Shown: one piece after another, positions 570 to 64,000 of the stretch
Layout: each line of letters begins with the position of its first letter
How positions within the stretch are numbered: position 1 is the first letter of the stretch
Source: Omnitrophica WOR_2 bacterium GWF2_43_52
Lineage (GTDB): Bacteria; Omnitrophota; Gorgyraeia; Gygaellales; UBA12090
Length of the DNA stretch: 64,000 bases
Direction: 5' to 3'
Assembly: GCA_001805445.1 (NCBI GenBank)
Contig: MHGF01000003.1
Span: 120,429-184,428 of the forward strand
Notes under the pieces: model-generated
Databases searched by the model: none
Seen by the model: the letters and a program-made list of their open reading frames with translations, nothing else
What the model was told of the DNA's origin: nothing
Program-made: the position numbers and the translations under genes

Positions 570-583
570 CCTTGTCATACAGT

Positions 584-2032: not shown

Positions 2033-2044
2033 GCAGATCATATC

Positions 2045-3139: not shown

Positions 3140-3574
3140 ACGGCTCTTTTTACAAGGCTGAAGAATTGATTGCCTAACTTCTTATTACCGTGAATGTATC
3201 GATAGGGTGCTTACCTTGTCTCGTGGTGTTTCATTAGGAAAAACTGGACAAAATAATCATGAAAGAGTATAATGAGATTCCAATAGTATAAGAATTGCGG
3301 AAAAACGTGTATTGTTATCCAACTTATAATGCTTTATTAAAAAACGCTATTAAAGCATAAACCATAGTTGCGGCAATTTTTTTAGGCTAAAGACTAAGAA
3401 TACCAGAGGCAAGGCACTTATCGCTACAGAAAGTTTTTTGGACTTTCATCAATCGCACCTTGAAGAATTAAATGAGTATTTGAGGATTTTATAGCATTCA
3501 ATAATGCCGCGTATACAAAAAACATTGTCTTTTTAGAGTAGGGAATTATTGACTCTTAACACAGAGGAGCAACA

Positions 3575-5709: not shown

Positions 5710-5723
5710 ATTTATGTGTTATA

Positions 5724-37411: not shown

Positions 37412-37428
37412 GATGCGATAAGTTATTC

Positions 37429-37467
37429 TCAACCCCCGAGGTGTGGTACACACCTCGGGGGTTGAGA
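37429..37467 (+). other. Perfect 18-bp-stem hairpin CTCAACCCCCGAGGTGTG-GTAC-CACACCTCGGGGGTTGAG between the NfnA-like and NfnB-PanB genes
   Basis: Read from the sequence. No trailing U-run. Confidence 0.7.
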
Positions 37468-37489
37468 TAGGTTGGAGTTGGATTTTACT

Positions 37490-39700
37490 ATGCCTATGCG
37501 CCAGCAAAACCCACAGGAACGGATCAGAAACTTTTTTGAAGTAGCTCTTGGCTATTCCAAGGAAGACGCCCAAAAAGAAGCAGAGCGCTGCCTGCTCTGC
37601 AAAGAGCCCCTCTGCGTCCAAGGCTGCCCCGTTGAAATTGATATTCCGGCATTTATAAAGCTTTTACGTGAAGATAAGCCTCAAGAAGCACTCTCAAAAA
37701 TCAAGGAAAAAAATAACCTCCCCGCGGTCTGCGGCAGAGTCTGCCCACAGGAGGACCAATGCGAGGGAAGGTGCATTTTAAATAAGAAAAAAGTACCCAT
37801 CAATATCGGCGCCCTGGAACGCTACGCGGCGGATTATGGAAAAGTCCACAGTCAAAAAGGGCTATCGGCTAGTGACCATAGACTATCGATAAAAATCGCT
37901 GTCGTCGGCTCAGGGCCTGCGGGCTTGACAGCAGCCGCGGATCTTGCTAAAATGCGATATTCTGTTACGCTCTTTGAATCACTTCATGTTCCCGGCGGAG
38001 TCCTTAGCTATGGAATCCCGGAATTCCGCCTGCCCAAAGAAATTGTCCATGAGGAAATCGCCGCTATTAAGAATTTAGGCGTAGAATTAAAAACCGATAT
38101 TTTAATCGGAAAAACCTTTAGCCTTGTTGATCTTTTTGAGGCAGGATACAAAGCAATTTTTTTAGGGCTTGGGGCGGGGCTTCCTCAATTCATGGGAATC
38201 CCCGGTGAAAACTTAGACAGGGTTTATTCCGCCAATGAATTCCTCACCAGGGTAAACTTGATGCGGGCGTATAAGTTTCCCGAATTTAAAACACCTGTAT
38301 CCATAGGCAAAAAAATAGCGGTCATTGGTGGAGGGAACGTTGCCTTTGACAGTGCGCGCTGTGGCGCGCGTTTAGGAAGCCAGGTCAGCATTATCTATCG
38401 CCGCGGCGAAGCCGAAATGCCCGCGAGGCATGAGGAAATACAAAATGCGAAAGAAGAAGGAATAACCTTTCAATTGCTTACCCAGCCCGTAAAAATCATC
38501 GGGCTTGATACAGGCTTTGTAAGCGGTGTGGAATGCGTCAAAATGCAGCTTGGAGATCCTGACAGCTCAGGAAGGAGAAGGCCTGTCGCTATAGCAGGGT
38601 CCAATTTTGTTTTAGACGCGGATACGGTGATTATCGCGATCGGACAAACTCCCAATCCGCTTTTAGCAAAAGTTACTCCGGAATTAAAAACAACGCCGCG
38701 GGGAACCGTTATCATAGATAAAAACTATATGACATCAATACACGGGGTATTCGCCGGCGGGGATATTACTACCGGCGCCGACACCGTCATCGCCGCAATG
38801 GGCGCGGGGAAAAGGGCTGCCCGCGCGATAGACCACTATATAAAGAAAGTAGAGAGTAGAATGGCTGAGATAAAAAAAACGACGATACAGGATATACTTT
38901 CATTAAAGAACAAACGTAAAATCACCATGCTTACTGCCTATGATTATCCTCTTGCCTTATTGGTGGACAGGGCAGGCATAGATATGATACTCGTGGGAGA
39001 TTCCCTTGCCAATGTAGTCCTGGGATTAGACTCAACCACCAAAGTGGGAATGAACGAAATGCTGCATCATGCCAAGGCGGTAAGCCGCGCGGTAACACAC
39101 AGTTTAGTTATTGGCGATATGCCGTATGAATCATATCAGCTCAACCCCGGCAAAACAGTAGAAAATGCCAAGCGCTTTATTGAAGAAGCGCGCTGTGACT
39201 GCGTAAAATTGGAATGGTTTGATCAATGCCTTGAGGTAACAGAGAAAACCATTTCTTCAGGCGTTTCAGTCATGGGGCACATTGGCTTAACTCCGCAAAC
39301 AGCGGATAAACTCGGAGGTTTTAAAGTCCAGGGAAAAGACGCCCAAGCAGCCCAAAAACTTATTGACCAAGCGCGGGCATTAGAAAACGCGGGATGCTTT
39401 GCCATTGTCTTAGAATGTGTCCCTGACAAAATAGCCGAAATCATTACCCAAAAACTCACCATCCCTACGATAGGTATCGGAGCAGGCATGAGCTGTGACG
39501 GCCAGGTCCTTGTTACCCATGATATGCTCGGCCTCTTTGAAAGATTCACCCCTAAATTCGTTAAAAAATACCTTGATCTTGGCCCCTTGATACTCAAAGC
39601 CATTGAAGAATATAAGAACGACGTCCTGCAGAAAAGGTTTCCGGGCCAGGAACATAGTTTCAGCATAAAAAACGAAGAACTTATAAAACTAAAAACATGA
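37490..39700 (+). CDS. In-frame fusion: GltD/NfnB/SudA-like NAD(P)H-dependent FAD/FeS oxidoreductase (residues 1 to about 460) plus 3-methyl-2-oxobutanoate hydroxymethyltransferase PanB (about 465 to the end)
   Basis: N-terminus: 2x Cys clusters (CKEPLCVQGCP / CGRVCPQEDQCEGRC) and two GxGxxG motifs (VVGSGPAGL / IGGGNVAFD). C-terminus: PanB motifs KITMLTAYDYP, LVGDSLANVVLG and HIGLTPQ. There is no stop between them (linker ...KKVESRMAEIKK...). Confidence 0.7.
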   Translation: MPMRQQNPQERIRNFFEVALGYSKEDAQKEAERCLLCKEPLCVQGCPVEIDIPAFIKLLREDKPQEALSKIKEKNNLPAVCGRVCPQEDQCEGRCILNKKKVPINIGALERYAADYGKVHSQKGLSASDHRLSIKIAVVGSGPAGLTAAADLAKMRYSVTLFESLHVPGGVLSYGIPEFRLPKEIVHEEIAAIKNLGVELKTDILIGKTFSLVDLFEAGYKAIFLGLGAGLPQFMGIPGENLDRVYSANEFLTRVNLMRAYKFPEFKTPVSIGKKIAVIGGGNVAFDSARCGARLGSQVSIIYRRGEAEMPARHEEIQNAKEEGITFQLLTQPVKIIGLDTGFVSGVECVKMQLGDPDSSGRRRPVAIAGSNFVLDADTVIIAIGQTPNPLLAKVTPELKTTPRGTVIIDKNYMTSIHGVFAGGDITTGADTVIAAMGAGKRAARAIDHYIKKVESRMAEIKKTTIQDILSLKNKRKITMLTAYDYPLALLVDRAGIDMILVGDSLANVVLGLDSTTKVGMNEMLHHAKAVSRAVTHSLVIGDMPYESYQLNPGKTVENAKRFIEEARCDCVKLEWFDQCLEVTEKTISSGVSVMGHIGLTPQTADKLGGFKVQGKDAQAAQKLIDQARALENAGCFAIVLECVPDKIAEIITQKLTIPTIGIGAGMSCDGQVLVTHDMLGLFERFTPKFVKKYLDLGPLILKAIEEYKNDVLQKRFPGQEHSFSIKNEELIKLKT

Positions 39701-51340: not shown

Positions 51341-51648
51341 GAAGGACGCCGGTATTAAATTACAACTTGCAATTTTACAAAATTACAAATTTGTAAAATT
51401 TTCACTTGACAAATGTTCCGGCCTATGATAAAAAGATAACAACTATAGTATTAGGGATAGCTACAATCTGAAGCTGAGAGGAGGATGATACTAAAAGCGC
51501 TTGATAACTATCTGAAGTCTAATGTTATAGAGGAAAAGGCAGTTTAGAAATTCCCCGCTAAGGCAAAAAATAAGCCTTACGTGCAAATACACAAAAACAA
51601 GAACACATGAGTCCTAATACAATAAACCTAACTAAAGGAGGTAAACAA

Positions 51649-53208
51649 ATGGCTAGACGTTTAAGCGCATTGTTATGCTTAGTCGCCGCAATTAGCTTTG
51701 TGGTAACCCCGGCATTTGCCGCGGTACAGAATGTGAAAGTAAGTGGTGATATCGGTGTAAGCGCAGTTTCACGTAATAACTTAGATCTGGATAAGACAAG
51801 ATCCCTTCATGTGGTAGATGATACAGATTCCAGGAATGACAAACAGGATGATTTTCTATCTATTACCAGGGTAAAGGTAGATGCAGACCTTACTGATAAT
51901 GTTTCAACAAGCGTAAGATTAATTAATGAGAGAAATTGGAACAGAAATGCTGTAAGCGCTGCTGCTGCTGATATAGGAGCCAATAGGAATATTGGTTTAA
52001 ATACTACAGACGAAGCAGAGAATGATAATGATATTGATATAGATTTAGCATCTGTTACCTTAAGAGAATTTTTATACTCACCTCTCACACTGACTGTAGG
52101 ACGTCAGGAGTTACGTTTTGGTAATGGCTGGATTATAGGAGATCCTGATACCAATGGATTAGCCTTAGAATCAGATTTATCAGAGGGCGATTTGAGTATG
52201 CGCAAAGCATTTGATGCCATCCGCGCCAAATTAGATTATAATCCCTTAGTTCTGGATTTAATCTATGCTAAAGTTGTAGAAAATAATACCTCATTAAATG
52301 ATGATACCACTTTGTATGGTATCAATGCGGCATACGAATTAAACCCTGAAACTACTATAGAGGGTTTTTATTTTGCTAAGAAAAGGTCAATCACAGACTC
52401 AGCAGCAGGAACCAGCACCGGCGCAACAAATGTGGACAATGGCTTACCCACTAACTTTGATGCCATAACTGCCGTTGGAGCTACTGGAGTTAAACAAAAA
52501 GATGACGTGGTCAACACAGTAGGTGTCCGCGCTGTAAATAAAAGCGTAAAGAATCTTACCTTGGATGGACAGGTTGCCTATCAGTTTGGAACCTACAATC
52601 CAAAGCTCGACCCCAATGCAAGATTCATCAGCGCGACAAATAAAGCCCTTACAACTCAGAGAAGCGCATGGGGCGCGGAAGTTGTAGCAGTTTACGATTT
52701 AAAAGATGTAATTGCTACATGGGAACCAAGCCTCACCGGAGCCTATGTATTTTTATCCGGCGCTAATAGAGATAGAACAGGTGAACAAACCTACAAAGGA
52801 TGGGATTCCATGTTTGAAGACCAGACTTTTGGCCATCTCATTAATGCCGTATTAGGTTTTTCCAATACGCATTTACTCGGAGTTTCCCTGAAAGCCAAAC
52901 CAGCAACTGACGTAACCGCGAAATTAGATTACGTTACCGGCTGGTTTGTCAAGAAATTCGTGGAAGGAAGACAAGCAAACCTTTCAGGAGTAAGCGGCGC
53001 ACAACAGTTCACAATGAGCAATAAGGCGAACTACGCTCATGAACTTGATGCAACTGTTCTGTATGACTATACAGAAGATGTCCAATTCTCTCTGTTAGGT
53101 GGAATATTGTTTGGAACAGATGCAATAAATGGTAATGAAAGCGTTTATCCCTACAGACAGCAAGCCAACGCTGTAGAGTTAATTGGTTCTATGAAGGTAG
53201 TATTCTAA
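51649..53208 (+). CDS. Outer-membrane beta-barrel (porin-like) protein
   Basis: Signal peptide MARRLSALLCLVAAISFVVTPAFA and alternating amphipathic strands. C-terminal ...MKVVF (terminal Phe, as in OMPs). Start moved to Met-15 behind an AAAGGAGG RBS. Confidence 0.6.
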   Translation: MARRLSALLCLVAAISFVVTPAFAAVQNVKVSGDIGVSAVSRNNLDLDKTRSLHVVDDTDSRNDKQDDFLSITRVKVDADLTDNVSTSVRLINERNWNRNAVSAAAADIGANRNIGLNTTDEAENDNDIDIDLASVTLREFLYSPLTLTVGRQELRFGNGWIIGDPDTNGLALESDLSEGDLSMRKAFDAIRAKLDYNPLVLDLIYAKVVENNTSLNDDTTLYGINAAYELNPETTIEGFYFAKKRSITDSAAGTSTGATNVDNGLPTNFDAITAVGATGVKQKDDVVNTVGVRAVNKSVKNLTLDGQVAYQFGTYNPKLDPNARFISATNKALTTQRSAWGAEVVAVYDLKDVIATWEPSLTGAYVFLSGANRDRTGEQTYKGWDSMFEDQTFGHLINAVLGFSNTHLLGVSLKAKPATDVTAKLDYVTGWFVKKFVEGRQANLSGVSGAQQFTMSNKANYAHELDATVLYDYTEDVQFSLLGGILFGTDAINGNESVYPYRQQANAVELIGSMKVVF

Positions 53209-53228
53209 TAGCTTCAAATCTACCATAA

Positions 53229-53266
53229 AAAACCCTCAGGGGAGCAATCCCTTGAGGGTTTTTTAG
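53229..53266 (+). terminator. Rho-independent terminator after the OMP gene
   Basis: AACCCTCAGGGG-AGCAATC-CCCTTGAGGGTT followed by TTTTTT. Confidence 0.75.
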
Positions 53267-53274
53267 TATCCTCC

Positions 53275-53332
53275 TTTCCGGAGGCTCCGCCTCCGGTTAT
53301 TGGAGACGATCGGAGGCGGAGCCTCCGGAAAA
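53275..53332. repeat. Pair of REP-like hairpin elements in inverted orientation (TTTCCGGAGGCTCCGCCTCCGG / CGGAGGCGGAGCCTCCGGAAA) just upstream of the RAYT gene. Two more copies lie inside the gene at about 53505-53522 and 54017-54035.
   Basis: Perfect 21-nt inverted repeat read from the sequence. Each copy is itself a 7-bp-stem hairpin (CCGGAGG-CGGAG-CCTCCGG). Confidence 0.8.
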
Positions 53333-53335
53333 GAA

Positions 53336-54049
53336 ATGAGAAAAACAACCTTCGCAACAGACTGTTATTATCATATATATAACCGCGGAGTTGAAAAAAG
53401 AGTAATATTCCAAGGAAATAAGGATTATAAGCGTTTCCTTTTAGGATTAGAAGAATTTAACACCTCGCTCCCGACAGAAATTAGAAGTATCCAACTCCCC
53501 AAAACGGAGGCGGAGCCTCCGGAAAAATTAGTTGAAATTGTATGTTTTTGCTTAATGCCTAATCACTATCACTTAATAATAAAACAAACTGTCAGTAACG
53601 GTATTACTCAGTTTATGCATAAATTGGGCACGGGCTACGCAATGTATTTTAATAAAAAGTGGAAAAGAAGCGGAATATTATTTGAGGGCAATTTCAAAGC
53701 TAAGCTTATAGAAACTGACGAATATCTTCTGCATTTATCAAGATATATCCATCTTAACCCTGTAGATATGATAAATTCCCACTGGAAAGAAGATGGAATC
53801 AAAGATACTAATAGAGTTAAAAAATTTCTTTTAGGCTACTACTGGTCAAGTTATCCGATATACATTAAAAAACTTACTTCTCACCTTATTTCCACTGAAC
53901 AAATAGAGAAAATAATTACAAACGTACCTAATTACGAACACTTTACCTTAAGTTACACCTCGAAGGATATAGCTACCTTAATGCCTTTAACATTAGAAAC
54001 TCCTGTTCCCGTCCACCCGGAGGCGGAGCCTCCGGAGGATGACCTATGA
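53336..54049 (+). mobile_element. REP-associated tyrosine transposase (RAYT / IS200-like Y1 HUH transposase, COG1943 type)
   Basis: YHIYNRG motif, HUH motif MPNHYHLII, and catalytic-Tyr region LSRYIHLNPV. Flanked by and containing cognate REP-like hairpins. ATGA overlap with the downstream GH57 gene. Confidence 0.7.
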
Positions 54050-55596
54050 TCTATCTTGCTTTTGTCTGGCATATGCACCAGCCGTATTACCGTGACCTTA
54101 TCACGGGGCAATTGCACCTGCCTTGGGTGCGCCTGCACGGTATCAAGGATTACCTAGATATGGTCAAAATCCTTGAGCATTACCCGAAAATCCGCCAAAC
54201 CTTTAACCTCGTGCCTTCACTAATCGAACAAATCCAAGCCTATTGTGACGGCGCGCAGGATACCTATCAGATACTGAGCTACAAAAAAGCTTCCGACTTA
54301 ACTCACGATGAAAAACATTTTATCAAAGACCACTTTTTCTCAGCGCACCCGGATAATATTATCGCCGTAAGCCCACGGTATCATCACTTATACCTCCAGA
54401 AAGCATCTCATAAAGACTTTAGCCAGCAGGATTACCTCGATCTCCAGACCTGGTTTAACTTAGCCTGGTTTGACCCCTACTGCAAGAAAAACAACCCGGA
54501 ATTAAGAAAAATAATCGCAAAGGCAAGGCATTTTAGCGAAGAAGACAAGCTCATCGTCTTACACGAACAGATAGAAACGTTAAAAGAAATTATCCCTACC
54601 TATAAAGAATTTCAGGAAAAGGGGCAGATTGAGGTTACGACAACTCCGTATTATCATCCCATAACTCCGCTTTTGTATAATACAAATATTGCCAAAGAAG
54701 CTAACCGCTCAACAAGCCTGCCTGGAGTAAACTTCAGCTACCCTGAAGACGCGCGCGCTCAGATACAGCAGGCTGTCGCACTCTATACCAAGGCTTTTGG
54801 AAGGCCGCCGGAGGGGATGTGGCCGTCTGAGGAGGCAGTGAGCGAGCACATCATCCCATTCTTTATAGAATCGGGAATCAAATGGATCGTAGCGGATGAA
54901 GAAATACTTTTTAGATCGCTTAAGAAAAAGCGCTCTGCCGAGCTTCTCTATAAAGCGCATACTTTAAAGCGTAAAGACGGAAACCTGGCTGGCTTATTCC
55001 GTGACCGCAATCTTTCCGATTTAATCGGTTTCATGTATCATAAAATGACAGAGCATGCCGCGGTTGCTGACTTTATCGGACATCTCCATACTATCGCGAA
55101 AGCCTTTAAGGAAAAGGACTGCTTAATAACTATTGCCATGGACGGGGAAAATGCCTGGGAATACTACCGCAATGACGGATGGGATTTCCTCTCACATCTC
55201 TATAAATGCTTAAGCGAGGATAAACTTATTCAAACCGTAACAGTGAGCGAGTACCTGACAAAGTTTCCTCCAGATTCAAATATAGCGCGTATCAGCGCGG
55301 GCTCATGGATTTACGGTAATTTCAATAAGTGGATGGGCCAGGAGCAAAAGAATAAAGCCTGGGAATACCTGGCTTTAGCCCGCAAGGAATTGGAGCCCTC
55401 AGCTTTTGACTCTCAGCTTTCCGCGGAAAATTTGGAAATGGCATGGAAACAAATCTACATCTGCGAAGGCAGCGACTGGTTTTGGTGGTACGGCGACAAT
55501 AACGATGATTTCGACCGCCTCTATCGAAAACACCTCTCAAATTTTTATACCTTCCTAGGAAAAAAAATTCCAGAATATTTGACAAAACCTATATAG
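54046..55596 (+). CDS. Glycoside hydrolase family 57 protein (alpha-glucan branching/processing enzyme type)
   Basis: N-terminus MIYLAFVWHMHQPYYRD is the GH57 signature. About 516 aa, a typical length for GH57 branching enzymes. Confidence 0.8.
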   Translation: MIYLAFVWHMHQPYYRDLITGQLHLPWVRLHGIKDYLDMVKILEHYPKIRQTFNLVPSLIEQIQAYCDGAQDTYQILSYKKASDLTHDEKHFIKDHFFSAHPDNIIAVSPRYHHLYLQKASHKDFSQQDYLDLQTWFNLAWFDPYCKKNNPELRKIIAKARHFSEEDKLIVLHEQIETLKEIIPTYKEFQEKGQIEVTTTPYYHPITPLLYNTNIAKEANRSTSLPGVNFSYPEDARAQIQQAVALYTKAFGRPPEGMWPSEEAVSEHIIPFFIESGIKWIVADEEILFRSLKKKRSAELLYKAHTLKRKDGNLAGLFRDRNLSDLIGFMYHKMTEHAAVADFIGHLHTIAKAFKEKDCLITIAMDGENAWEYYRNDGWDFLSHLYKCLSEDKLIQTVTVSEYLTKFPPDSNIARISAGSWIYGNFNKWMGQEQKNKAWEYLALARKELEPSAFDSQLSAENLEMAWKQIYICEGSDWFWWYGDNNDDFDRLYRKHLSNFYTFLGKKIPEYLTKPI

Positions 55597-55678
55597 TGTG
55601 TATAATATAAAAATATACACAATATTTTGCGTCTGAACACAAGAAAAACATTGACAAAAGAAAGTTTTCTGCTATAAA

Positions 55679-56263
55679 ATGGAAAAGAAGGAAGTATACG
55701 ATTATTTAGCAAAAATATATTTGGATAAGCAGCCTGCCGCGAAGATAGTAAGGAAGGCGCCTGAACCAAGTAAAAAATATATAACGTTCATTCTCATAGC
55801 GCTCGGTATCGCGATCGTCAGCGCGGGAGCCTTTCTAAAATACCAGATACGCTTTTTTAAGCCTAAGGCATTTGGCCTTTATGTGGCAACCGGCAGCGAG
55901 CTCATCAAACTCAAGTACAACTTTAACAACTCAAGCACTAAAAAAGAAGGCTATAGTGTTACCTTATCGGACATCAACGCGCAGGATTACCAACACCTAC
56001 AATTTCAGGCACGTTCGCTTACCGACGACCCGGGAATAAAGATACGAGTAGAGGTTGAGAATAATCTAAAAGAGAATGCCTTTAGCTACATTGATGGAGT
56101 AAGCGGCGCGTGGAAGGAATTCACCCTGAAGTTAAGCGATTTTAAGGGATTAACGCGCTGGGATAACGTAAACAAAATATCGTTTATCATTGAGGAATGG
56201 AACGTTGTGGGAAAGGAAAATAGTGTTTTCATAGACGAGATAAGGCTAATCAAAAAAAAGTAG
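55679..56263 (+). CDS. Hypothetical type-II membrane protein with an extracytoplasmic beta-sandwich (CBM-like) domain
   Basis: Cytoplasmic N-terminus, one TM helix (ITFILIALGIAIVSAGAFL), then a domain ending ...WNVVGKENSVFIDEIRLIKKK (CBM-like pattern). The family assignment is tentative. Confidence 0.4.
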   Translation: MEKKEVYDYLAKIYLDKQPAAKIVRKAPEPSKKYITFILIALGIAIVSAGAFLKYQIRFFKPKAFGLYVATGSELIKLKYNFNNSSTKKEGYSVTLSDINAQDYQHLQFQARSLTDDPGIKIRVEVENNLKENAFSYIDGVSGAWKEFTLKLSDFKGLTRWDNVNKISFIIEEWNVVGKENSVFIDEIRLIKKK

Positions 56264-56276
56264 GAGGGAAAACTAT

Positions 56277-57365
56277 ATGAGAATAATCTCAATAGCCAAT
56301 CAAAAAGGAGGCTGCGGGAAAACTACCACAGCCGTAAACTTAGGCGCGGCATTAGCCAGTAACAACCGTAAAGTGCTTTTGATTGACTTTGACCCTCAAG
56401 CCCATGCAACCGTCGGGCTCAACGTCCAGGCAAAGATAAGCATCTACAATTGCCTTTCTAAACTCTCCCCGGAAAAAGCAACGTTACAGGATATCATCGT
56501 CAATATTGATAATAACTTTGATTTAGCCCCCTCAAACATTATCCTCACCACTCTGGAGCAGGAACTGGCCAATGAAATAGGCAGGGAAAACCACCTCCAG
56601 GATACGCTTTCCGCCTTTAAAAACGACTACGACTATATTCTTATAGATTGCCCGCCCAATTTAGGCATCCTAACGGTAAATGCCATATGCGCGTCGAATG
56701 AAGTTATCATCCCTGTTGAGCCAAGCCGCTTCTCAGTAGAGGGCCTAAGCCGGCTAATAGATATCATTGACCTTATCCAGAACCGCCTTAACCATACCGT
56801 AAGCCACAATGTCCTGGTAACCATGTTTGATTCCCGATTGAAATACGCCTTTAGAATATTAGCAGAGCTCAGAAGCAAATTCAGGGAATGTATGTTTTCT
56901 ACCATAATCCACGTCAATGTCAAACTCAAAGAATCACAGAGTTCAGGTTCTTCGGTCATGGGTTTTGACAAATATAGCAGAGGCGCTAAAGATTACTTCA
57001 GCTTAGCAAAAGAGATGCTGAGCATGGGAAAACAAGTGGAAAAGGGGACAGAGTTTGTGGTTTCCAAAAAAATGCGAGAGCTCGTTAGTGCCCATCTGCC
57101 GAAATTAAATAAAGTCACACTAAAACTTGACTTTCCTGGTGCCAAAGAGGTTTATATCGCCGGAGATTTCAACAACTGGTCAAAAGACCCGAGTTCCGCG
57201 ATGATTGGCACTAATGGCAGCTGGAACAAACGCCTTAGCCTTAAACCCGGCCAATACCACTACCGTTTCGTTGTTGACGGGAATTGGATAACTGATCCCG
57301 GGAATCCCTTGCAAGAGAAAAACCCTTACGGGGAATATGACTCTCTTTTAAAAATAGGTGCCTAA
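56277..57365 (+). CDS. ParA/Soj-family deviant Walker-A ATPase fused to a C-terminal CBM48 / AMPK-beta-type glycogen-binding domain
   Basis: N-terminus IANQKGGCGKTTTAVNL (KGGxxGKT) plus a full ParA core (about 250 aa). C-terminal roughly 100 aa read VTLKLDFPGAKEVYIAGDFNNWSKD...YHYRFVVDGNWITDPGNP, closely matching the AMPK-beta1 GBD including both carbohydrate-contact Trp positions. Strong RBS AGGAGGG. Confidence 0.8.
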   Translation: MRIISIANQKGGCGKTTTAVNLGAALASNNRKVLLIDFDPQAHATVGLNVQAKISIYNCLSKLSPEKATLQDIIVNIDNNFDLAPSNIILTTLEQELANEIGRENHLQDTLSAFKNDYDYILIDCPPNLGILTVNAICASNEVIIPVEPSRFSVEGLSRLIDIIDLIQNRLNHTVSHNVLVTMFDSRLKYAFRILAELRSKFRECMFSTIIHVNVKLKESQSSGSSVMGFDKYSRGAKDYFSLAKEMLSMGKQVEKGTEFVVSKKMRELVSAHLPKLNKVTLKLDFPGAKEVYIAGDFNNWSKDPSSAMIGTNGSWNKRLSLKPGQYHYRFVVDGNWITDPGNPLQEKNPYGEYDSLLKIGA

Positions 57366-57393
57366 GCTCTTCGCGCAATGAGCTTTCCTAACC

Positions 57394-58065
57394 ATGCACA
57401 CCTTTGAGGCCATTAAGAACAGGCGTTCAATAAGAGAATTCACCCGTCAAGAAATAACCAAAGAAAACTTAGAGAAACTCATTGAAGCCGCGCGCCTGGC
57501 GCCTACTGCTCGTAATGAACAGCCATGGGAATTTGTCGTTATTACCAATCAGGCAGTAAAACAAAAGATATCCCAGATAACTGACCCTAATGGCCTCTTT
57601 ATCAGCAGCGCCGCGGCAGCTATCGTGGTTTTCTGCCTTAACAGCAAATATTATCTTGAGGATGGCTCTGCCGCGACCGAAAACATCCTTATCCAAGCCT
57701 CTGACTTAGGAATAGGCTCCTGCTGGGTAGCTGGTGATAAAAAACCTTACTGTGACAAGGTAAAACAGCTGCTTAAGGTTACTGATAAATACAAGCTCAT
57801 CAGCATCATTGCCTTAGGATACCCCCAGCAAAGCCCTGGCCCTATTGAAAAACGCGCGATAAAAGACGTAGTGCATTGGGAAGCATTTTTAACAAAAACG
57901 TTGTATCAGAAAGAGTTTAAGGGAAACAATGGCAAATCTAAAAAAAGCAAGCCTAAAGAAAAAAATAGTAAAAAAACCGGTGAAAGCTGTCAGAAAACCA
58001 AAAACGCCAGCCCCAAAACTATTAAAAAACAAAAAAGCAGCAAAGGCTTCTTCACCCAAGGCTAA
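57394..58065 (+). CDS. Nitroreductase-family flavoprotein; 3' boundary uncertain because the ORF reads through into an A-rich, Lys-coding region
   Basis: MHTFEAIKNRRSIREF...LAPTARNEQPWEFVVI motifs. The nitroreductase fold appears complete by about residue 165; the remaining roughly 55 aa are K/S-rich and overlap the next gene in another frame. Confidence 0.65.
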   Translation: MHTFEAIKNRRSIREFTRQEITKENLEKLIEAARLAPTARNEQPWEFVVITNQAVKQKISQITDPNGLFISSAAAAIVVFCLNSKYYLEDGSAATENILIQASDLGIGSCWVAGDKKPYCDKVKQLLKVTDKYKLISIIALGYPQQSPGPIEKRAIKDVVHWEAFLTKTLYQKEFKGNNGKSKKSKPKEKNSKKTGESCQKTKNASPKTIKKQKSSKGFFTQG

Positions 58066-58318
58066 AAAAGAAACCAGTATTATTATCGGGAAGATTGTCC
58101 ATTATTTTCCCCATGTCAAAGCAGGCGTCGTCAAGCTTAAACATCCCATAACCGTAGGCGATACAGTCAGAATCAAAGGGCACACTACTGATTTCACCTA
58201 TGCCATAAGTTCCATACAAATAGACCGCGCCCCACTACAAAAAGCAAAAAAAGGCCAAGAAATAGGCCTCTTAGTCACATCCAGAGTAAGAAGAGGCGAC
58301 AAAATCTACAAACTCTAA
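57929..58318 (+). CDS. Small basic protein: histone-H1-like Lys/Ala/Pro-rich N-terminus plus an EF-Tu-domain-2-like beta-barrel C-terminus
   Basis: AAGGGA RBS 5 nt upstream of the ATG. N-terminal KKPVKAVRKPKTPAPKLLKNKKAAKASSPKAKK. C-terminal IIGKIVHYFPHVKAGVVKLKHPITVGDTVRIKGHTT... resembles EF-Tu domain 2 (GTVVTGRVERG...VGDEVEIVG). Confidence 0.45.
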   Translation: MANLKKASLKKKIVKKPVKAVRKPKTPAPKLLKNKKAAKASSPKAKKETSIIIGKIVHYFPHVKAGVVKLKHPITVGDTVRIKGHTTDFTYAISSIQIDRAPLQKAKKGQEIGLLVTSRVRRGDKIYKL

Positions 58319-58328
58319 CCCCTCACCA

Positions 58329-58351
58329 ATTCAACCTCGTAGGTTGAATTT
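58329..58351 (+). repeat. Family E hairpin AATTCAACCT-CGT-AGGTTGAATT. Related copies at 58618-58644 (followed by T7, terminator-like) and 58662-58686.
   Basis: Read from the sequence. They flank the small Cys-rich ORF. The region from 58571 to 58700 also contains a longer-range inverted repeat (AAACACCCTAAAATCAAC / GTTGATTTTAGGG..GGTGTTT). Confidence 0.55.
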
Positions 58352-58374
58352 CGGGGAAGGAAAGGGATATAAGT

Positions 58375-58560
58375 ATGCAATGGGAAGATATCGCAAAAAA
58401 GGCAATAAACTTAAATATTACGCATCCTGAACGATACTCTAAGACAGACCTCATTAAAACAATCCAAAAGAAAGAAGGTAATTATGATTGCTATAACTCT
58501 AATAATTACCAATGCCCCCAATTAGCCTGCTGTTGGCGAACTGATTGCCTCAAGCAATAA
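58375..58560 (+). CDS. Small protein (61 aa) with a Rho_N/SAP-like N-terminus and a 5-Cys C-terminal tail
   Basis: WEDIAKKAINLNITHPERYSKTDLIKTIQKK resembles Rho N-terminal-domain helices. C-terminal CYNSNNYQCPQLACCWRTDC. Flanked by hairpin repeats. Could be spurious. Confidence 0.35.
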   Translation: MQWEDIAKKAINLNITHPERYSKTDLIKTIQKKEGNYDCYNSNNYQCPQLACCWRTDCLKQ

Positions 58561-58920
58561 AGAATTCCTCTAAACACCCTAAAATCAACTAATTCCCCTT
58601 AAATCACCCCACATCCTAAAACAACCTCGTAGGTTGATTTTTTTACCGTCGATGTTTTTCCGCAACCTCCGCGGTTGATTTTAGGGGGAGGGGTGTTTAT
58701 GTTTTGCAACGTAGAGCTAACTTGTTGTTTTTTAGTAGGTTAGAGTAATATGAATATTTAGCACGCTAGACTATAAAATTTAGGATGTTTATATTCATCA
58801 ACAAGTCCCTTTCAGGGAGGCTGTATAGGAGCTTTCATCGTAAAAAAATATATTATTTAATCTGTTTATTATCAACTAGTTACGGATTGAAATGTACTAT
58901 TTTGTAATATTTTTTACTTT

Positions 58921-58936
58921 TGGCACAGAAAATGCT
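58921..58936 (+). promoter_or_regulatory. Sigma-54-type (-24/-12) promoter: TGGCAC-N5-ATGCT
   Basis: TTTTGGCACAGAAAATGCTG has GG and GC separated by 10 nt, fitting TGGCAC-N5-TTGCW. It lies about 110 nt upstream of the MerR-like/Wza operon. Confidence 0.5.
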
Positions 58937-59044
58937 GTATACTATGTATACGGTAACAAACGGACATACCCAGACATACTATGACATATAGGGACATTAC
59001 TGAAGGTTACCATACAATTTTTGATATTAACAAGGAGGTTTACG

Positions 59045-59263
59045 TTGGCAGGAAACGGTAGGATGACAATTACAGACGTAGCTGAGCGGTTAGGCGTTAC
59101 CCAAAAGACAATTGTCCGCTGGGAAAAAGCAGGTAAGGTAGGCCTGGCAAAGCGTGACTGGCGCGGCTGGCGAGTCTATGATAAAAATGATTTCAAAAAA
59201 CTAAAAACTTTTAAGGAAATGATCGTGTATTACGGGGAGGACAAAAATGATACAAAAACTTAA
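59045..59263 (+). CDS. MerR/excisionase-family HTH DNA-binding protein
   Basis: HTH MTITDVAERLGVTQKTIVRWEKAGKV. TTG start chosen 6 nt after an AAGGAGG RBS (the alternative is the ATG at 59063). 3' end overlaps the wza start. Confidence 0.6.
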   Translation: MAGNGRMTITDVAERLGVTQKTIVRWEKAGKVGLAKRDWRGWRVYDKNDFKKLKTFKEMIVYYGEDKNDTKT

Positions 59264-60083
59264 GTATATAGGTATACTGCTGGTTTTCGCGGCTACTTCG
59301 GCCCAGGCGTTTGCCGCAGCTGAGCCTTCTGAGGAGCTCAAGATTATTGAAACGCCGAATACAATAGAAATCCACACTTCGCAAATAGCAGCTCCTCTCG
59401 ATAAGAGCCAGGACACTACCGCTTCAGAAGCTACCACCAAAACCATCGTGTCAGAGAGCTATAAATTTGACCCCCTCAAGTATACCCTCGGCCCTGATGA
59501 TGTCATTGAGATCGCGGTCCTGCGCCATCCGGAGTTTAGCGGCGTCTACCCCATAGACCAGGAGGGAAAGATTCAATATAAATTTGTCGGAGATATAGTG
59601 GTAACCGGCTTAACAAAGTCACAATTAGAACAAAGAATAACGGATATTATTTCCAGCTTTGTTATCACTCCTGAGGTAAACGTCACTATTAACGAATACC
59701 GGAGTAAAGTTATTTACATCCTGGGGGAAGTCGGAACCCCGGGGAAATACTACATACGTTCTGAGGCGATTCCCGTGCGCGAGGCGGTATTCCAGGCAGG
59801 GCTTCCTACTGGATCAGCGGCTATGCGCAAATGCCAGATTATTACACCCTCAAAAGACGGAAATGTCAAGATACGAAAGGTTGACATCTATTCATTGCTC
59901 TACGGCGGTAATTTAAAGAAAAACATCGAAATGAAACCCGGAGATGTGCTCTATGTCCCATCTACCGTAATGGCAAAACTCATTAGAGTCATTAACCCCG
60001 TTGCCTCTACCGTGGGCGTCGCTTCAAGCGGCCCAAGCAGCGCATCAGGCGGCAAGGCCGCGCTTGAAACTTTAGCCAAATAA
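59247..60083 (+). CDS. Polysaccharide export outer-membrane protein (Wza/EpsE/GumB family, Poly_export plus SLBB)
   Basis: Signal peptide; motif YTLGPDDVIEIAVLRHPEFSGVYPIDQEGKIQYKFVGDIVVTGLT. Confidence 0.8.
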   Translation: MIQKLKYIGILLVFAATSAQAFAAAEPSEELKIIETPNTIEIHTSQIAAPLDKSQDTTASEATTKTIVSESYKFDPLKYTLGPDDVIEIAVLRHPEFSGVYPIDQEGKIQYKFVGDIVVTGLTKSQLEQRITDIISSFVITPEVNVTINEYRSKVIYILGEVGTPGKYYIRSEAIPVREAVFQAGLPTGSAAMRKCQIITPSKDGNVKIRKVDIYSLLYGGNLKKNIEMKPGDVLYVPSTVMAKLIRVINPVASTVGVASSGPSSASGGKAALETLAK

Positions 60084-60100
60084 TACGAGGAGACTAAATA

Positions 60101-61414
60101 ATGGAAGACCAGGAATTCAGCAAATACCGTAACCCCATAGAATACCTTAAAGTATTTTTTCGCCGCAAATGGCTTTTTATCGCGCCCGCCTTTATCGGCA
60201 CAACCATAGGAGCGGCAGCGTGTTTCCTGCTTCCGCCCACATGGGAATCTTCAACGATAATCCTTGTTGAGGAAGAAAAAATAATTAATCCGCTCTTTCA
60301 AAACCTGGCGGTATCAACCAGCGCCGCGCAGAGAATGCAAAGTATCAGAGAAAGCATCCTCAGCTGGAACAGCTTGGTTGAGCTGGCTAAAAAGTTAGAC
60401 TTGGCAAAAAACGCGCAGTCGCAAGCAGAATATGAGCGGCTGATTATGAACCTCAAGAAAGACATCTCCGTCCAGATGCGCCAGCACAATATTATCAGGC
60501 TTGCCTACGAAGGGAAAACTCCCAAGGAAACCCAGTTAGTGGCAAAGACGCTTACCGATATCCTGGTCGAAAAAAACATGCGGGCGCAAACCAAGGAAAC
60601 TGATGTGGCAATAGCCTTTATCACAGAACAGCTTGCCATCTACAAAAGAAAGATAAAAGAATCGGAAATCGCTAACCTGCAGGACCAATTAAAAAACCTC
60701 CTGGAAGATTCTACCGAACAGCATCCTATAGTCAAAGAAATAAGGCAGAAAATAGATACGGAACTAAAAGAGTTAGACTCCGGGGAATATAAAATTACCG
60801 GAACAGAGCAAGCCATTTCCAGCCCCGCGAGAGAAGCCTTAAAAAAGGAGCTGGATAAACTCGTCCAAGACAAGACATCCCAGTCACTCTCAGGCGGCGT
60901 GCGGCCGACAGCCGCGGAAAGCGAGAACGACGCTAATAAATCCATCTATAAGCTCCTCTTAATGGACAGGGTAGATACATCATTAGCGAGGGATATCAAC
61001 GTTAACGTCAGTATCTACAATATGCTTCTTGAGAAATTAGAGACCGCGAAAATCACCCAGCGCCTGGAAACCTCTAAAGAAGGAACGCGCTATACTATCC
61101 TTGACCCGCCCCGTCTTCCTTTAAAACCGATAAAGCCTAAAAAGGTATTGGTCGTCCTGCTGGGGTTTTTCTTCGGTGCCGCCTCCGGTACAGGGCTTGT
61201 CTTTGGCAAGGAATTTATGGACCAATCGTTCCTGGACATCGAAGATACACGGCATACACTGTCATTACCAGTATTAGGCGCGATTTCGCGCATCACGACG
61301 CAAGAAGCAATTGATAAAGAGAAAAACAGGAGGAAAGTCGCTATTGCCGCAAGCATAGTTTTAGCTTCGGCCTCAGTAATCGGCGCTGCCCTGTTTTCAC
61401 TCTTAAAAAAATAA
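60101..61414 (+). CDS. Polysaccharide chain-length determinant / co-polymerase (Wzz/PCP family, GumC/EpsF-like)
   Basis: N-terminal TM plus the Wzz motif, a long periplasmic coiled-coil, and a C-terminal TM helix. Confidence 0.75.
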   Translation: MEDQEFSKYRNPIEYLKVFFRRKWLFIAPAFIGTTIGAAACFLLPPTWESSTIILVEEEKIINPLFQNLAVSTSAAQRMQSIRESILSWNSLVELAKKLDLAKNAQSQAEYERLIMNLKKDISVQMRQHNIIRLAYEGKTPKETQLVAKTLTDILVEKNMRAQTKETDVAIAFITEQLAIYKRKIKESEIANLQDQLKNLLEDSTEQHPIVKEIRQKIDTELKELDSGEYKITGTEQAISSPAREALKKELDKLVQDKTSQSLSGGVRPTAAESENDANKSIYKLLLMDRVDTSLARDINVNVSIYNMLLEKLETAKITQRLETSKEGTRYTILDPPRLPLKPIKPKKVLVVLLGFFFGAASGTGLVFGKEFMDQSFLDIEDTRHTLSLPVLGAISRITTQEAIDKEKNRRKVAIAASIVLASASVIGAALFSLLKK

Positions 61415-61418
61415 GACT

Positions 61419-62288
61419 ATGTACGAAAATTTCTTCGGATTTAGCGAAAAACCGTTCAACACCACCCCTGACTCAAGATTCTTTTTCCCAAGCACCAAGC
61501 ATTTGGAGGCGCTTAACAGCTTAGTCTATGCCATTGACCAGAGGAAAGGCTTTGTCGTCATTACCGGTGAAATCGGGGCAGGCAAGACCACCGTCTGCAG
61601 AACACTCTTAAATAAGCTTAACGGCAGCACCAAAGTAGCCCTCATCACCAATACCCACATCAGCGCGAAAGAACTCCTTTCGGAGATTCTTGACGAATTC
61701 GAGATTGAACATAAGGGAGGAACCAAACAAAGGCTCCTCTCGCATCTGAACAAATTCCTGATTCAGGAGTTAGCCACAGACACCAATGTCGTTTTGATTA
61801 TTGATGAAGCGCAAAACCTTACCCCTACGGTTTTAGAGGAGGTACGGATGCTTTCTAACCTTGAGACCGAAAAAGAAAAGCTCATCCAGATTATCCTTCT
61901 CGGACAGCCCCAGCTCAAAGCAAAGCTGGAACATTCAAGATTGGAACAATTCAAACAAAGGATTGCCGTTTACTATCACTTAGCTACCCTCAACCATGAA
62001 GAAACGAAAGAATACATCCATCACAGGCTAAAAATCGCCAGCGTCAACGCGCATGTCAAAATTTTTAGCCCTGAGGCAATAGACTTAATTTACGCCTATT
62101 CAAAAGGCGTGCCCCGAATTATCAATTTAACCTGCGACAGCGCGCTTTTAAGCGGCTATATTATGGATACGAAGTGCATTGAAGAAACAACAATCAAGGA
62201 AGTAATCAAAGAGAGGCAATTAGAAAGCTCCGTTACCGATCTTGCGTGTACTGAAAATCAAGACGCCTCTTATTGTGTTAAGCATTAA
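61419..62288 (+). CDS. ExeA/GspA-like AAA ATPase of EPS loci (PEP-CTERM-locus 'secretion ATPase' type)
   Basis: FGFSEKPFNTTPDSRFFFPSTKHLEAL...VVITGEIGAGKTTVCR (Walker A), then DEAQNL. Confidence 0.75.
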   Translation: MYENFFGFSEKPFNTTPDSRFFFPSTKHLEALNSLVYAIDQRKGFVVITGEIGAGKTTVCRTLLNKLNGSTKVALITNTHISAKELLSEILDEFEIEHKGGTKQRLLSHLNKFLIQELATDTNVVLIIDEAQNLTPTVLEEVRMLSNLETEKEKLIQIILLGQPQLKAKLEHSRLEQFKQRIAVYYHLATLNHEETKEYIHHRLKIASVNAHVKIFSPEAIDLIYAYSKGVPRIINLTCDSALLSGYIMDTKCIEETTIKEVIKERQLESSVTDLACTENQDASYCVKH

Positions 62289-62303
62289 TCAAAAAGGAGC
62301 ACT

Positions 62304-63092
62304 ATGGGTAAATTAACCGATGCCTTAAAAAAAGCAGCTGAAGAACGCATTTCAAGAATAGAAAAGCTTGATAGCCAAGACGAAGTCAAATACCAGTTCA
62401 TTGCCAAAAAAACGGTAGAGTCAAAGATTGACCCCCGCATTGTCTCATTCTACGACTCCCACGCTCCGGTATCCGAACAATACCGCAGCCTACGCACCAA
62501 TCTTCAAGCCTTAAATACCTCAAAACCGGCGAAAGTCATCGCGATCACCAGTTCTATTAACGGCGAAGGGAAAACCATCTCCGCGATCAACCTGGCTATC
62601 ACAATGGCAAAGGACCTTAATCAAAAAAGTATCCTCCTTATTGACGCTGACCTGCGCCGTTCGCGTATCACCAAATACCTTGGCATAACCCCTGAATTAG
62701 GGCTTTCAGATATCATCACCAATGGCTCAAACATTGACGACGCGCTCCTGAATATAGGCATCGAGAATCTCACGGTGCTTTCCGCGGGAAAGCACCCCAC
62801 TAATCCCGCGGAACTTTTAGGCTCACAGAAATTCAAGAACCTCATGAACCAGGTAAAGGCCAAATACGACTACATCATCCTTGACACCCCGCCGATTATC
62901 CCGGTAACCGATGCCGGATTAATAGGCGCGCAAGCTGACGGCGTGATAATGGTTGTCCAGGCATCCCGCACGCAACGGGGAGTTGTCAAACACAGTGAAG
63001 GGCTCCTAAAACAAGCCCAAGCCAAAATTCTCGGCTACATACTCACGAATGTCCAGTACCATATACCAGGGTATATTTATAGATACTTATAA
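62304..63092 (+). CDS. Bacterial tyrosine (BY) kinase / chain-length-determinant ATPase (CpsD/EpsG type)
   Basis: Walker A' ITSSINGEGKTISAINLA, Walker A...DADLRRS, Walker B YDYIILDTPP. C-terminal Tyr-rich tail YHIPGYIYRYL. Confidence 0.8.
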   Translation: MGKLTDALKKAAEERISRIEKLDSQDEVKYQFIAKKTVESKIDPRIVSFYDSHAPVSEQYRSLRTNLQALNTSKPAKVIAITSSINGEGKTISAINLAITMAKDLNQKSILLIDADLRRSRITKYLGITPELGLSDIITNGSNIDDALLNIGIENLTVLSAGKHPTNPAELLGSQKFKNLMNQVKAKYDYIILDTPPIIPVTDAGLIGAQADGVIMVVQASRTQRGVVKHSEGLLKQAQAKILGYILTNVQYHIPGYIYRYL

Positions 63093-63136
63093 AAGTCTAT
63101 GGACTATAGTCTATAGCCGATAGTAGAGAAAAGAAT

Positions 63137-63490
63137 ATGTTTAAGTTTGAAAATTTAAAAATCTGGAAAGAATCAGTTGCGTTTGCGGGTGAAATTTACA
63201 CCTTATCTAAAAAATTCCCCAGGGAAGAGCTGTTTGGGCTAACGAGTCAATTAACAAGGGCAGCTGTATCTATCAGCTTAAACATCGCCGAAGGCGAAGG
63301 CAGAAACTCTGACGCCGAATTATCGCGATTTACGCAAATAGCAATAGGTTCTTTAAATGAGGTCGTAACAGTTTTATTCATAAGTTTAGAGCAAAAATAT
63401 ATTGCTCAAAAAGATTTTGATTTATCCTACAAGAGATGCGAACAAATCTCTAAAATGTTACACGCTTTTAGAAATTATTTAAAACATTAA
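63137..63490 (+). CDS. Four-helix-bundle protein (TIGR02436 type; 23S rRNA intervening-sequence protein family)
   Basis: MFKFENLKIWKESVAF...SQLTRAAVSISLNIAEGEGR signature. Flanked on both sides by inverted copies of the ATAGACTATCGACC repeat. Confidence 0.75.
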   Translation: MFKFENLKIWKESVAFAGEIYTLSKKFPREELFGLTSQLTRAAVSISLNIAEGEGRNSDAELSRFTQIAIGSLNEVVTVLFISLEQKYIAQKDFDLSYKRCEQISKMLHAFRNYLKH

Positions 63491-63539
63491 CTATAGACTA
63501 TCGACCATAGACTATCGACCAAAAAAAGGAGGCAATTCC

Positions 63540-64000
63540 ATGAAGTTCTTAGTAACCGGCGGGGCGGGGTTTATCGGTTCACATATAACTGAGAGGCTGC
63601 TCAAAGAAGGCCATTTTGTAAGAATACTGGATAACTTCTGTTCAGGAAAAGATGAAAACCTCGCCTTTACCAAAGGGCTCGGTAAAGACAAATTCGAGCT
63701 CATCAGAGGAGATATCAGGGATAAGGCAGCCTGCGAGAAGGCCTGCGACGGCATTGATTACGTGCTTCATCAAGCAGCCCTGCGCAGCGTGCCAAAATCC
63801 ATGAAAGAGCCGGAAAGCTACAACGACGTCAACATTAACGGCACCTTGTTCCTGCTTCAGGCAGCCTCCGGGCACAAGGTAAAGCGCCTTGTGATGGCTT
63901 CCTCAAGCTCTGTCTACGGCGATACCGATACATTCCCGGAACAGGAAAGCGCCTACCCATTATTGATTTCTCCTTATGCCTTAAGCAAATTAGCCGGAGA
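63540..64000 (+). CDS. UDP-sugar 4-epimerase (WbpP/CapI-like NAD-dependent epimerase); 3' end outside the window
   Basis: MKFLVTGGAGFIGSH...LDNFCSGKDENL...YALSK. AAAGGAGG RBS. The frame is open to the window end. This ORF is not in the track because it is unterminated. Confidence 0.8.
   Translation, partial: MKFLVTGGAGFIGSHITERLLKEGHFVRILDNFCSGKDENLAFTKGLGKDKFELIRGDIRDKAACEKACDGIDYVLHQAALRSVPKSMKEPESYNDVNINGTLFLLQAASGHKVKRLVMASSSSVYGDTDTFPEQESAYPLLISPYALSKLAG

Follow-up and report, generated by a model that had tools for sequence, protein, structure and literature searches.

A Y1 HUH endonuclease gene of Omnitrophota and Patescibacteria with its own hairpin at three stations, a probably ancestral layout

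We have analyzed a 64-kb window of DNA (64,000 nucleotides; contig MHGF01000003.1, positions 120,429 to 184,428, assembly GCA_001805445.1) from Omnitrophica WOR_2 bacterium GWF2_43_52, in which the only gene for a Y1 HUH single-strand DNA endonuclease is accompanied by four copies of a short hairpin lying in front of the gene, inside it and at its 3' end. We propose, as the probable explanation, that this is a single-copy, vertically inherited gene resembling those of the RAYT and TIRYT nucleases, that its hairpin occupies three conserved stations (upstream, U; internal, I; downstream, D), and that this tripartite layout is ancestral to a large clade of Omnitrophota and Patescibacteria instead of resulting from a recent insertion of repetitive extragenic palindromes (REPs). 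Since the layout recurs across this large clade, each gene having its own matching hairpin, it is read as an inherited design and not as a recent accident.

The Y1 gene and its hairpins

The following elements make up the locus (positions are those of the window):

53336-54049, plus strand: Y1 HUH single-strand DNA endonuclease gene, open reading frame (ORF) with ATG start, 237 amino acids
53278-53296, minus strand: upstream hairpin U1, CCGGAGGC-TCC-GCCTCCGG, 8-bp stem, 3-nt loop
53311-53327, plus strand: upstream hairpin U2, CGGAGGC-GGA-GCCTCCG, 7-bp stem, 3-nt loop, its end 8 nt 5' of the ATG
53505-53521, plus strand: internal hairpin I, CGGAGGC-GGA-GCCTCCG, 7-bp stem, 3-nt loop, in frame as T57-EAEPP-E63
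54017-54035, plus strand: downstream hairpin D, CCGGAGGC-GGA-GCCTCCGG, 8-bp stem, 3-nt loop, in frame as P228-EAEPP-E234

A pattern search for the 17-mer CGGAGGCGGAGCCTCCG gives exactly four matches in the window, all within 53279-54034 (53279-53295 on the minus strand; 53311-53327, 53505-53521 and 54018-54034 on the plus strand), with about 0.01 matches expected by chance and four matches in none of 100 shuffles. Beyond these four copies, none is present in the 64-kb window even at two mismatches. All four are perfect palindromes; U2, I and D share one orientation and U1 has the opposite one, its TCC loop being inverted with respect to the GGA of the other three. Folded as single-stranded DNA, the single hairpins reach -8.2 and -11.9 kcal/mol, and the U1+U2 doublet (53278-53327) gives a single long hairpin with -29.4 and -30 kcal/mol (z about -8.2). 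The upstream pair is an inverted doublet like those of REPINs (REP doublets forming hairpins) or BIMEs (bacterial interspersed mosaic elements). An Rfam search returned no family above threshold, only sub-threshold look-alikes of microRNA precursors or leaders on the long upstream hairpin. Copies I and D are read in the same frame and both encode EAEPPE (residues 58-63 and 229-234). The former lies in the loop joining the helix of residues 28-40 to the strand that leads into the HUH motif, the latter in the C-terminal tail, three to four codons 5' of the stop. The initial annotation of this locus had reported hairpin copies both flanking and embedded in the gene, two of them inverted upstream and two giving a repeated EAEPPE; this description stands, with four exact copies and coordinates right within 1 nt.

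Judged from sequence and predicted fold, the protein is a RAYT-like Y1 HUH enzyme, in agreement with the RAYT-type assignment of the ORF made earlier. It carries the motifs YHIYNRG, NHYH, RYIHLNP, LFEG (LFQG in most homologues), YIHLNP and WSSY, with the HUH motif N76-H77-Y78-H79 encoded at 53561-53572 and the putative catalytic Tyr137 (RYIHLNP, residues 136-142) at 53744-53746; H77, H79, Y137 and N141 are invariant among the homologues (67 in the alignment). The Pfam family Y1_Tnp (PF01797) matches with E = 3.7e-9 and 37.2 bits against a cut-off of 23, the alignment covering only residue 65 onward, and the NCBIfam RAYT equivalog model NF047646 scores 36.3 bits, under its cut-off of 80. The top Foldseek match of the AlphaFold model, built from 67 homologues (predicted local distance difference test score, pLDDT, 89.5; predicted template modeling score, pTM, 0.85), is 4ER8, a complex of the E. 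coli REP-associated tyrosine transposase with a REP hairpin, followed by the TnpA proteins of IS608 and ISDra2 (4ER8, 2VJV and 2XO6 all at probability 1.0). The fold search was needed, as sequence-only searches of the PDB gave marginal matches only (ISDra2 TnpA, E = 0.05). Motifs and length fit TnpAY1 subclass 2.1 (PMC6006769 Table 1). The C-terminal region (residues 150-218) is modeled as helical. The only blocks of low pLDDT are residues 51-60 (mean 60, no regular secondary structure) and the tail 221-237 (59-64, coil), and these coincide with the two hairpin-encoded segments. Because both segments are modeled as disordered or with low confidence, any translation would seem to be tolerated at I and D.

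The three-station layout across related loci

More than 7,000 homologues, mostly from Omnitrophota and Patescibacteria, were found among the search candidates. The layout was compared over 83 loci, of which 80 come from GTDB genomes and two (L121, L122) from metagenome contigs, the window being the remaining one, and a locus was counted when it had at least two perfect hairpins with the same apex between -150 and +120 around the gene. The layout frequencies given here are lower bounds because the detector demanded perfect stems. As the hairpins were picked for perfect pairing, a formal covariation test would be circular, and comparisons with control ORFs and within and between loci were used instead.

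A locus-specific perfect hairpin occupies at least two of the three stations in 63 of the 83 loci (U+I+D in 31, U+D in 20, U+I in 7 and I+D in 3), versus 4 of 142 control ORFs that were matched in size and taken from these loci, none of the four with an internal copy. The position of the internal copy is largely constant: in 41 of 45 cases it falls in the pre-HUH loop between the first helix and the HUH strand, 13-22 residues before the HUH asparagine, in proteins only 40-50% identical to that of the window and each with a different hairpin. Locus L200 is the only one with a copy between HuH and Y. The downstream copy of the homologues is placed at or just past the stop codon. Family-wide, U is mostly inverted relative to D, and I is mostly oriented as D.

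In the first protein alignment, homologues were seen to repeat a peptide of their own at both places, e.g., EARPR in P0004 and EATPR in P0005. Across the loci, the internal copies use the three reading frames about equally (16/13/12) and encode unrelated peptides, so that it is the DNA or RNA element which is conserved and not the peptide. EAEPPE as a selected feature is thereby ruled out. The intragenic copies would persist since they are located in segments that tolerate any sequence, as suggested by the use of all frames and by the modeled disorder.

What the hairpins of the family have in common is the apex, 5'-RARGY-N3-RCYTY-3', with A at -4 in 56, G at -2 in 57 and a 3-nt loop in 55 of the 63 loci, while the lower stem varies freely. 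Similarity among the copies stops at the edge of the palindrome, and no locus shows a common flank. A guide or cleavage motif adjoining the hairpins, a GTAG foot and GGGGWSAS repeats were searched for as candidates and none was found. Some internal stems are very long and perfect (21 bp in L128, 5148-5192; 19 bp in L175). They go beyond the core that the flanking copies have in common with them, as though complementarity of the arms were actively maintained.

Concerted change of the hairpin copies

The copies of one locus change together. An unpaired loop is shared (in either orientation) by 153 of 170 within-locus copy pairs versus 8.8% of pairs between loci, and the stem in common, counted from the apex, averages 7.8 bp within a locus versus 1.1 bp between loci. 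A set that is not uniform occurs in L167, where I is CGGAAGT and U and D are GTGAAGT. The clearest example of joint change is the series of orthologues that lie between an Alginate_exp-family gene and a gene for a glycoside hydrolase of family 57 (GH57), given here with their protein identity to the window:

window (100%) and L121 (77%): CGGAGGC-gga at all stations compared
L122 and L206 (67%): ACGAGGC-tcg at all stations
L203 (65%): ACGAGGC-tac at all stations

The downstream station of L121 stands outside this comparison, the contig ending at the 3' end of the gene with a different hairpin that spans the stop codon. It is very unlikely that three or four copies would each arrive at identical alterations of stem and loop on their own, and a copying process of some kind presumably keeps them alike. 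In addition, loops are flipped. Between L122 and L206 the upstream loop is inverted in place, and whole sets are flipped among L158 and L176 (both U-tcg, I-cga, D-cga) and L184 (U-cga, I-tcg, D-tcg), which share 75-76% protein identity; L180 and L187 differ by a whole-set flip of the same kind with the relative arrangement kept. Because all three loop bases change at once, such a flip has to be counted as an inversion, as opposed to successive point mutations.

By analogy with the REP of E. coli TnpAREP and the subterminal hairpins of IS608 TnpA, the hairpin would be the recognition element of the enzyme on single-stranded DNA. Following the solved complexes of TnpAREP and of IS608 and ISDra2 TnpA, the conserved apex may be read by the conserved core of the protein, with the loop and the lower stem drifting along with the protein. 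The copies would be kept matched by copying and not by independent mutation, for which gene conversion or template switching between the palindromes, or the nick-and-rejoin chemistry of the enzyme itself, are candidates. The most likely role of the intragenic copies is presumably one in cis, on the enzyme's own gene: a doublet beside the start codon and stems within the ORF and at the stop would damp expression, and the stations would also supply putative binding sites for the enzyme at its own locus.

A bolder proposal, which we hold only tentatively and consider rather unlikely, is that of a self-maintaining module in which the Y1 nuclease would rewrite all copies of its own hairpin, those within its coding sequence among them, by nicking and hairpin-templated repair or strand transfer, the internal copy being an autoregulatory or self-limiting site conserved in that capacity in Omnitrophota and Patescibacteria. 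Such a module would explain the perfect stems, the concerted changes of the unpaired loop and the coordinated loop flips. An analogy is offered by parvoviruses, where the flip and flop forms of the terminal hairpin are made by the HUH protein Rep.

Alternatively, the hairpins may act solely as RNA structures, by masking the ribosome-binding site, pausing translation or providing a 3' stabilizer or RNase site, with no connection to DNA recognition by the enzyme. U2 does end 8 nt before the ATG, D is found at the stop codon, and I and D are both part of the mRNA. REP-type stems at a stop codon may affect mRNA decay and translation, and IS200 may limit its transposase via mRNA structure. Yet, the association is specific to Y1 genes (63/83 versus 4/142 neighboring ORFs), and an in-place loop flip alters the RNA loop and leaves a perfect DNA palindrome unchanged. 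The upstream copy usually has the opposite orientation, additional copies occur in intergenic DNA away from the gene, and Rfam gave no match above threshold. We thus regard this explanation as unlikely. An RNA role is compatible with the proposed inherited layout as an added function, not as the sole one.

Age, dispersal and stability of the layout

The initial annotation had taken the hairpins for REPs and had suggested recent activity or self-targeting of the transposase. In its full form, this explanation implies a classical RAYT with genome-wide REPs that have recently moved into the RAYT's own gene, so that the intragenic copies are young and only accidentally in frame. The window hairpins are indeed mutually identical, as expected of young insertions, small indels and partial arm duplications are found directly beside the internal copy in close relatives, and REPs inserted in frame are known from tnpAREP as well as from other genes (PMC6006769; PMC3733652).

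The age of the internal station argues otherwise. The length from YHIYNRG to NHxH is 63.1 residues with an internal hairpin versus 61.9 without a detectable one, and where no perfect internal copy exists, the imperfect sequence that comes closest to the own hairpin lies in the pre-HUH loop in 13 of 23 loci, with about 2.7 expected from position; clear remnants are present in L144 (1 mismatch) and L130 (2 mismatches). Because the loop length does not depend on the hairpin and remnants lie in the same loop, the internal station looks, from these sequences, old and decayed in some lineages, not like a run of fresh insertions, and a simple insertion model is ruled out. The same loop is used at 40-50% identity with different hairpins, and same-site orthologues carry different hairpins at the same codons. 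The possibility, raised in the initial annotation, that the EAEPPE segments are lineage-specific insertions is likewise not borne out, the same stations being used across the clade and the loop being of equal length with or without a hairpin.

The gene is also stable at short range. The exact protein is encoded on 24 contigs from many samples, with the same neighbors in 24/24, and ten of these loci, from independent assemblies, differ from the window by 0-1 single-nucleotide polymorphism across the module and keep all four hairpins. Variants at 96-100% identity all keep both EAEPPE segments, so that neither among them nor among the ten assemblies is there any presence/absence polymorphism of the hairpins. 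The position is syntenic down to 65% protein identity (loci at 65-77%). Together, the window gene is a stable single-copy resident and not an active mobile element, and the claim of recent activity is not supported.

As to dispersal, no related palindrome is present among 12 strong hairpins of the window, and no GT[AG]G foot stands beside the window hairpins. In relatives, 21 additional copies of the own hairpin occur in 457 kb of flanks (about one per 22 kb), 13 of the 21 intergenic. The only sampled genome with a REP-like local density is L147, a metagenome-assembled genome (MAG) of Candidatus Nomurabacteria, where five additional copies of CGGAAGT-CSG-ACTTCCG (at 944, 1018, 2171, 2436 and 6309) lie in 8 kb of flanks, four of them intergenic; such additional intergenic copies in some relatives would be in favor of REPs. 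A metagenome scan for the window 17-mer found at least 119 stretches, none of which, among the matches listed, encodes a Y1 relative, and nearly all of which are GC-rich (0.5-0.76); these matches are therefore attributed to chance and are uninformative on REP status. Judged by the window alone, the hairpin is unlikely to be denser than about one copy per 20 kb, and there may be a few dozen copies per genome. This dispersal is sparse compared to classical REPs and fits the low abundance of flanking repeats of Bertels' Group 1. With no other copy in the 63 kb of flanks, no GT[AG]G foot and a score of 36.3 versus 80 bits for NF047646, the designation of the hairpins as REPs could not be upheld. 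We consider a recent REP insertion very unlikely.

A further alternative is an autonomous IS200-like element, a unit of about 760 bp (53278-54035) with U and D as left and right subterminal ends, moving by single-strand peel-and-paste. The unit length and the hairpin-gene-hairpin layout resemble IS200, U2, I and D are co-oriented in the window as left and right ends would be, and the fold matches the TnpA proteins of IS608 and ISDra2. The distant relatives L204 and L205 are found in other gene neighborhoods, and in two contigs (L120 and L217) a break is located at the 5' end of the gene or close to it. Against mobility stand the constant neighbors on 24/24 contigs, the synteny to 65% identity and the single copy in the window. 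The tyrosine motif is Y---NP and not Y---Q, with 237 versus about 150 amino acids (PMC6006769 Table 1), U is usually inverted with respect to D family-wide and thus unusable by the canonical mechanism, and the gene overlaps the start codon of a host gene. Accordingly, we find this origin highly improbable. Chance, low-complexity sequence or an assembly artifact deserves practically no weight: palindromes are prone to assembly errors and L120 and L217 cease to match the window within the upstream hairpins or close to them, yet four exact copies face an expectation of 0.01, the sequence is identical in ten independent assemblies, and the layout recurs in dozens of unrelated ones.

Several observations concern possible local rearrangement at the hairpins. 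At L121:700-745 an indel hot spot adjoins the internal hairpin, with a partial duplication of the right arm (GAGCCTCCGGAAAAA twice), and P0124 and P0128 have an additional ETP before EAEPPE, P0133 an additional ETK. Contig L120 of the same organism (Joint Genome Institute contig Ga0103681_1000871) is 100% identical to window 53324-64000; its positions 1-283 match nothing in the window, the break lying in the right arm of U2 (GCC|TCCGG), and these 283 foreign bases contain a minus-strand ORF for a hydrophobic, membrane-protein-like product. Either the hairpin was the site of a genuine rearrangement, or the contig end is chimeric. L217 (GCA_003516535.1, DPCB01000191.1; 2640-3045) is identical to the window from codon 12 (YHIYNRG; 53369) onward. 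Its 5' end is a different one, with 11 other codons and three AAAGGC-CWG-GCCTTT palindromes whose apex conforms to that of the family; a LysM/M23 peptidase gene and two tRNA-like stretches are also found there. The contig resembles a hybrid to which a second Y1 paralogue has contributed a hairpin of its own, or else a chimeric assembly.

Some points weigh against the inherited, enzyme-linked layout that we prefer. The 80 GTDB loci are the most similar among the matches listed, all comparison loci come from MAG or metagenome assemblies, in which palindromes are prone to mis-assembly, and 20 of the 83 loci are without matching hairpins under the strict criteria. The hairpin count in this genome covers the 64-kb window only. 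On the side of the protein, the solved relatives share only about 12-16% sequence identity in the fold alignment, the assignment to subclass 2.1 was made by motif comparison alone and not by the hidden Markov models of that paper, and Pfam (E <= 0.001) reports PF01797 alone, with no C-terminal helix-turn-helix (HTH) or DnaA_C-like domain. The consensus scan gave no credible promoter for the Y1 gene.

For class-2 Y1 nucleases (RAYTs, TIRYTs), the clade is a test case for the upkeep of matched hairpin copies, the coordinated changes and flips at orthologous sites pointing to active copying on very short palindromes. The clade is large and many of its members reside in the tiny genomes of Patescibacteria, thereby offering hundreds of natural protein-hairpin pairs (putative substrates) with a common apex and with stems and loops that vary. 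From such pairs the rules by which HUH enzymes recognize their sites could well be decoded, and this would aid the design of sequence-specific HUH tags.

Neighboring genes and other structures of the window

The Y1 gene is enclosed by the following features:

51607-53208: upstream Alginate_exp-family gene
53233-53264, plus strand: terminator-like stem-loop after the Alginate_exp-family gene, 10-bp stem with one G-T pair, loop AGCAAT and a T6 run, read by eye
54046-55596, plus strand: downstream GH57 glycoside hydrolase gene (PF03065, E = 4e-68)

The gene order Alginate_exp, Y1, GH57 is kept in the orthologous loci. The stem-loop at 53233-53264, which was missed by the promoter/terminator consensus scan, is present at the same place in L121, L122, L203 and L206 and separates the Alginate_exp-family gene from the hairpin module. 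The Y1 stop and the GH57 start overlap by 4 nt (ATGA, 54046-54049), and this overlap suggests that the transposase-like gene is co-transcribed or translationally coupled with a host metabolic gene. In L206 (796-1309), a DUF6290/ParE toxin-antitoxin pair stands between the Alginate_exp and Y1 genes, directly 5' of the hairpin.

Elsewhere in the window, a perfect palindrome with a 19-bp stem (TCTCAACCCCCGAGGTGTG-gta-CACACCTCGGGGGTTGAGA, 37427-37467) has an apex unlike that of the Y1 hairpins; it is intergenic (between the ORFs 36566-37411 and 37472-39700) and has no T-run after it. Two other perfect hairpins, AATTCAACCT-cgt-AGGTTGAATT (58328-58350) and GGTGCTTTCC-gcg-GGAAAGCACC (62774-62796), have 3-nt loops on 10-bp stems; they show no relation to the Y1 hairpin and are possible terminators. 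The GC content is 0.37-0.40 in window 1-8000 versus 0.43-0.48 in most of the remainder.

Comparison with known systems

The locus shares much with the REPtrons of RAYT/TnpAREP (E. coli yafM type; subclasses 2.2, 2.4, 2.5, 2.7 and 2.8). The tyrosine motif Y---NP, which is the criterion for class 2 TnpAY1 (PMC6006769), and the closest fold (4ER8) agree; the gene is single-copy and vertically inherited; cognate palindromes flank it in inverted orientation (U1 minus versus D plus) and form a REPIN-like doublet; and each paralogue or orthologue has its own co-evolving hairpin. In contrast to REPtrons, no GT[AG]G foot adjoins the window hairpins, which are perfect palindromes of short length around a 3-nt loop; additional copies number 0 in the 63 kb of flanks, and relatives have about 1 per 22 kb; the score is under the NCBIfam RAYT cut-off, and there is an additional conserved intragenic station.

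With the IS200/IS605 TnpA proteins (IS608, ISDra2), the enzyme has in common the catalytic fold and hairpins on both sides of the gene, which by analogy are presumed to be recognized on single-stranded DNA. It differs in tyrosine motif and protein size (Y---Q and about 150 amino acids in IS200, subclass 1.1; PMC6006769) as well as in copy number, it shows no sign of mobility, and its ends are usually inverted.

A direct precedent for a cognate palindrome in the enzyme's own gene with the frame left intact is subclass 2.4, for which in-frame REPs within a peripheral variable region of tnpAREP were described (Quentin et al., 2018, PMC6006769) and reported as unique to that subclass (PMC6006769). 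The view in the initial annotation that in-frame REPs within a RAYT are unusual must therefore be qualified, even if site and clade are different. Subclass 2.4 is featured by NH[IFV]H, WQ, YIxNNP and a length of ~194 amino acids and occurs mainly in Cyanobacteria and Bacteroidetes (PMC6006769), unlike the NHYH, FE/FQ, YIHLNP and 237 amino acids found here in Omnitrophota and Patescibacteria. Its insertions lie between HuH and Y, versus before the HuH strand (41/45) and at the C-terminus here, and its REPs are long, with a GTAG foot or double foot, whereas the present hairpins are short, perfect and footless.

At the level of motifs, the closest counterpart is subclass 2.1, which equals the TIRYT of Di Nocera et al. 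(2013; PMC3733652) and Bertels' Group 1. The features listed for it are the motifs NH[YF]H, FQ (or W[EQ]) and Y[IV]HLNP, a proximal tail that contains an SS motif, and proteins with a median of 238 amino acids; the surroundings of the gene are reported to lack REP-like secondary structures (PMC6006769). NH[YF]H, FQ, Y[IV]HLNP, WSSY and the length are shared, and so are the low-abundance inverted repeats flanking the gene that are not canonical REPs. Here, by contrast, the inverted repeats are perfect hairpins with an intragenic copy in addition, neither strand of 53100-54300 contains the consensus GGGGWSAS of the TIRYT repeats, and the C-terminal HTH-like domain of TIRYTs (Bac_DnaA_C, HTH_23 or HTH_28) has no Pfam match. 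No description of this architecture in Patescibacteria or Omnitrophota was found in the open-access literature. On the sequences compared here, in-gene cognate hairpins extend to a clade with the motifs of subclass 2.1, a subclass reported as hairpin-free.

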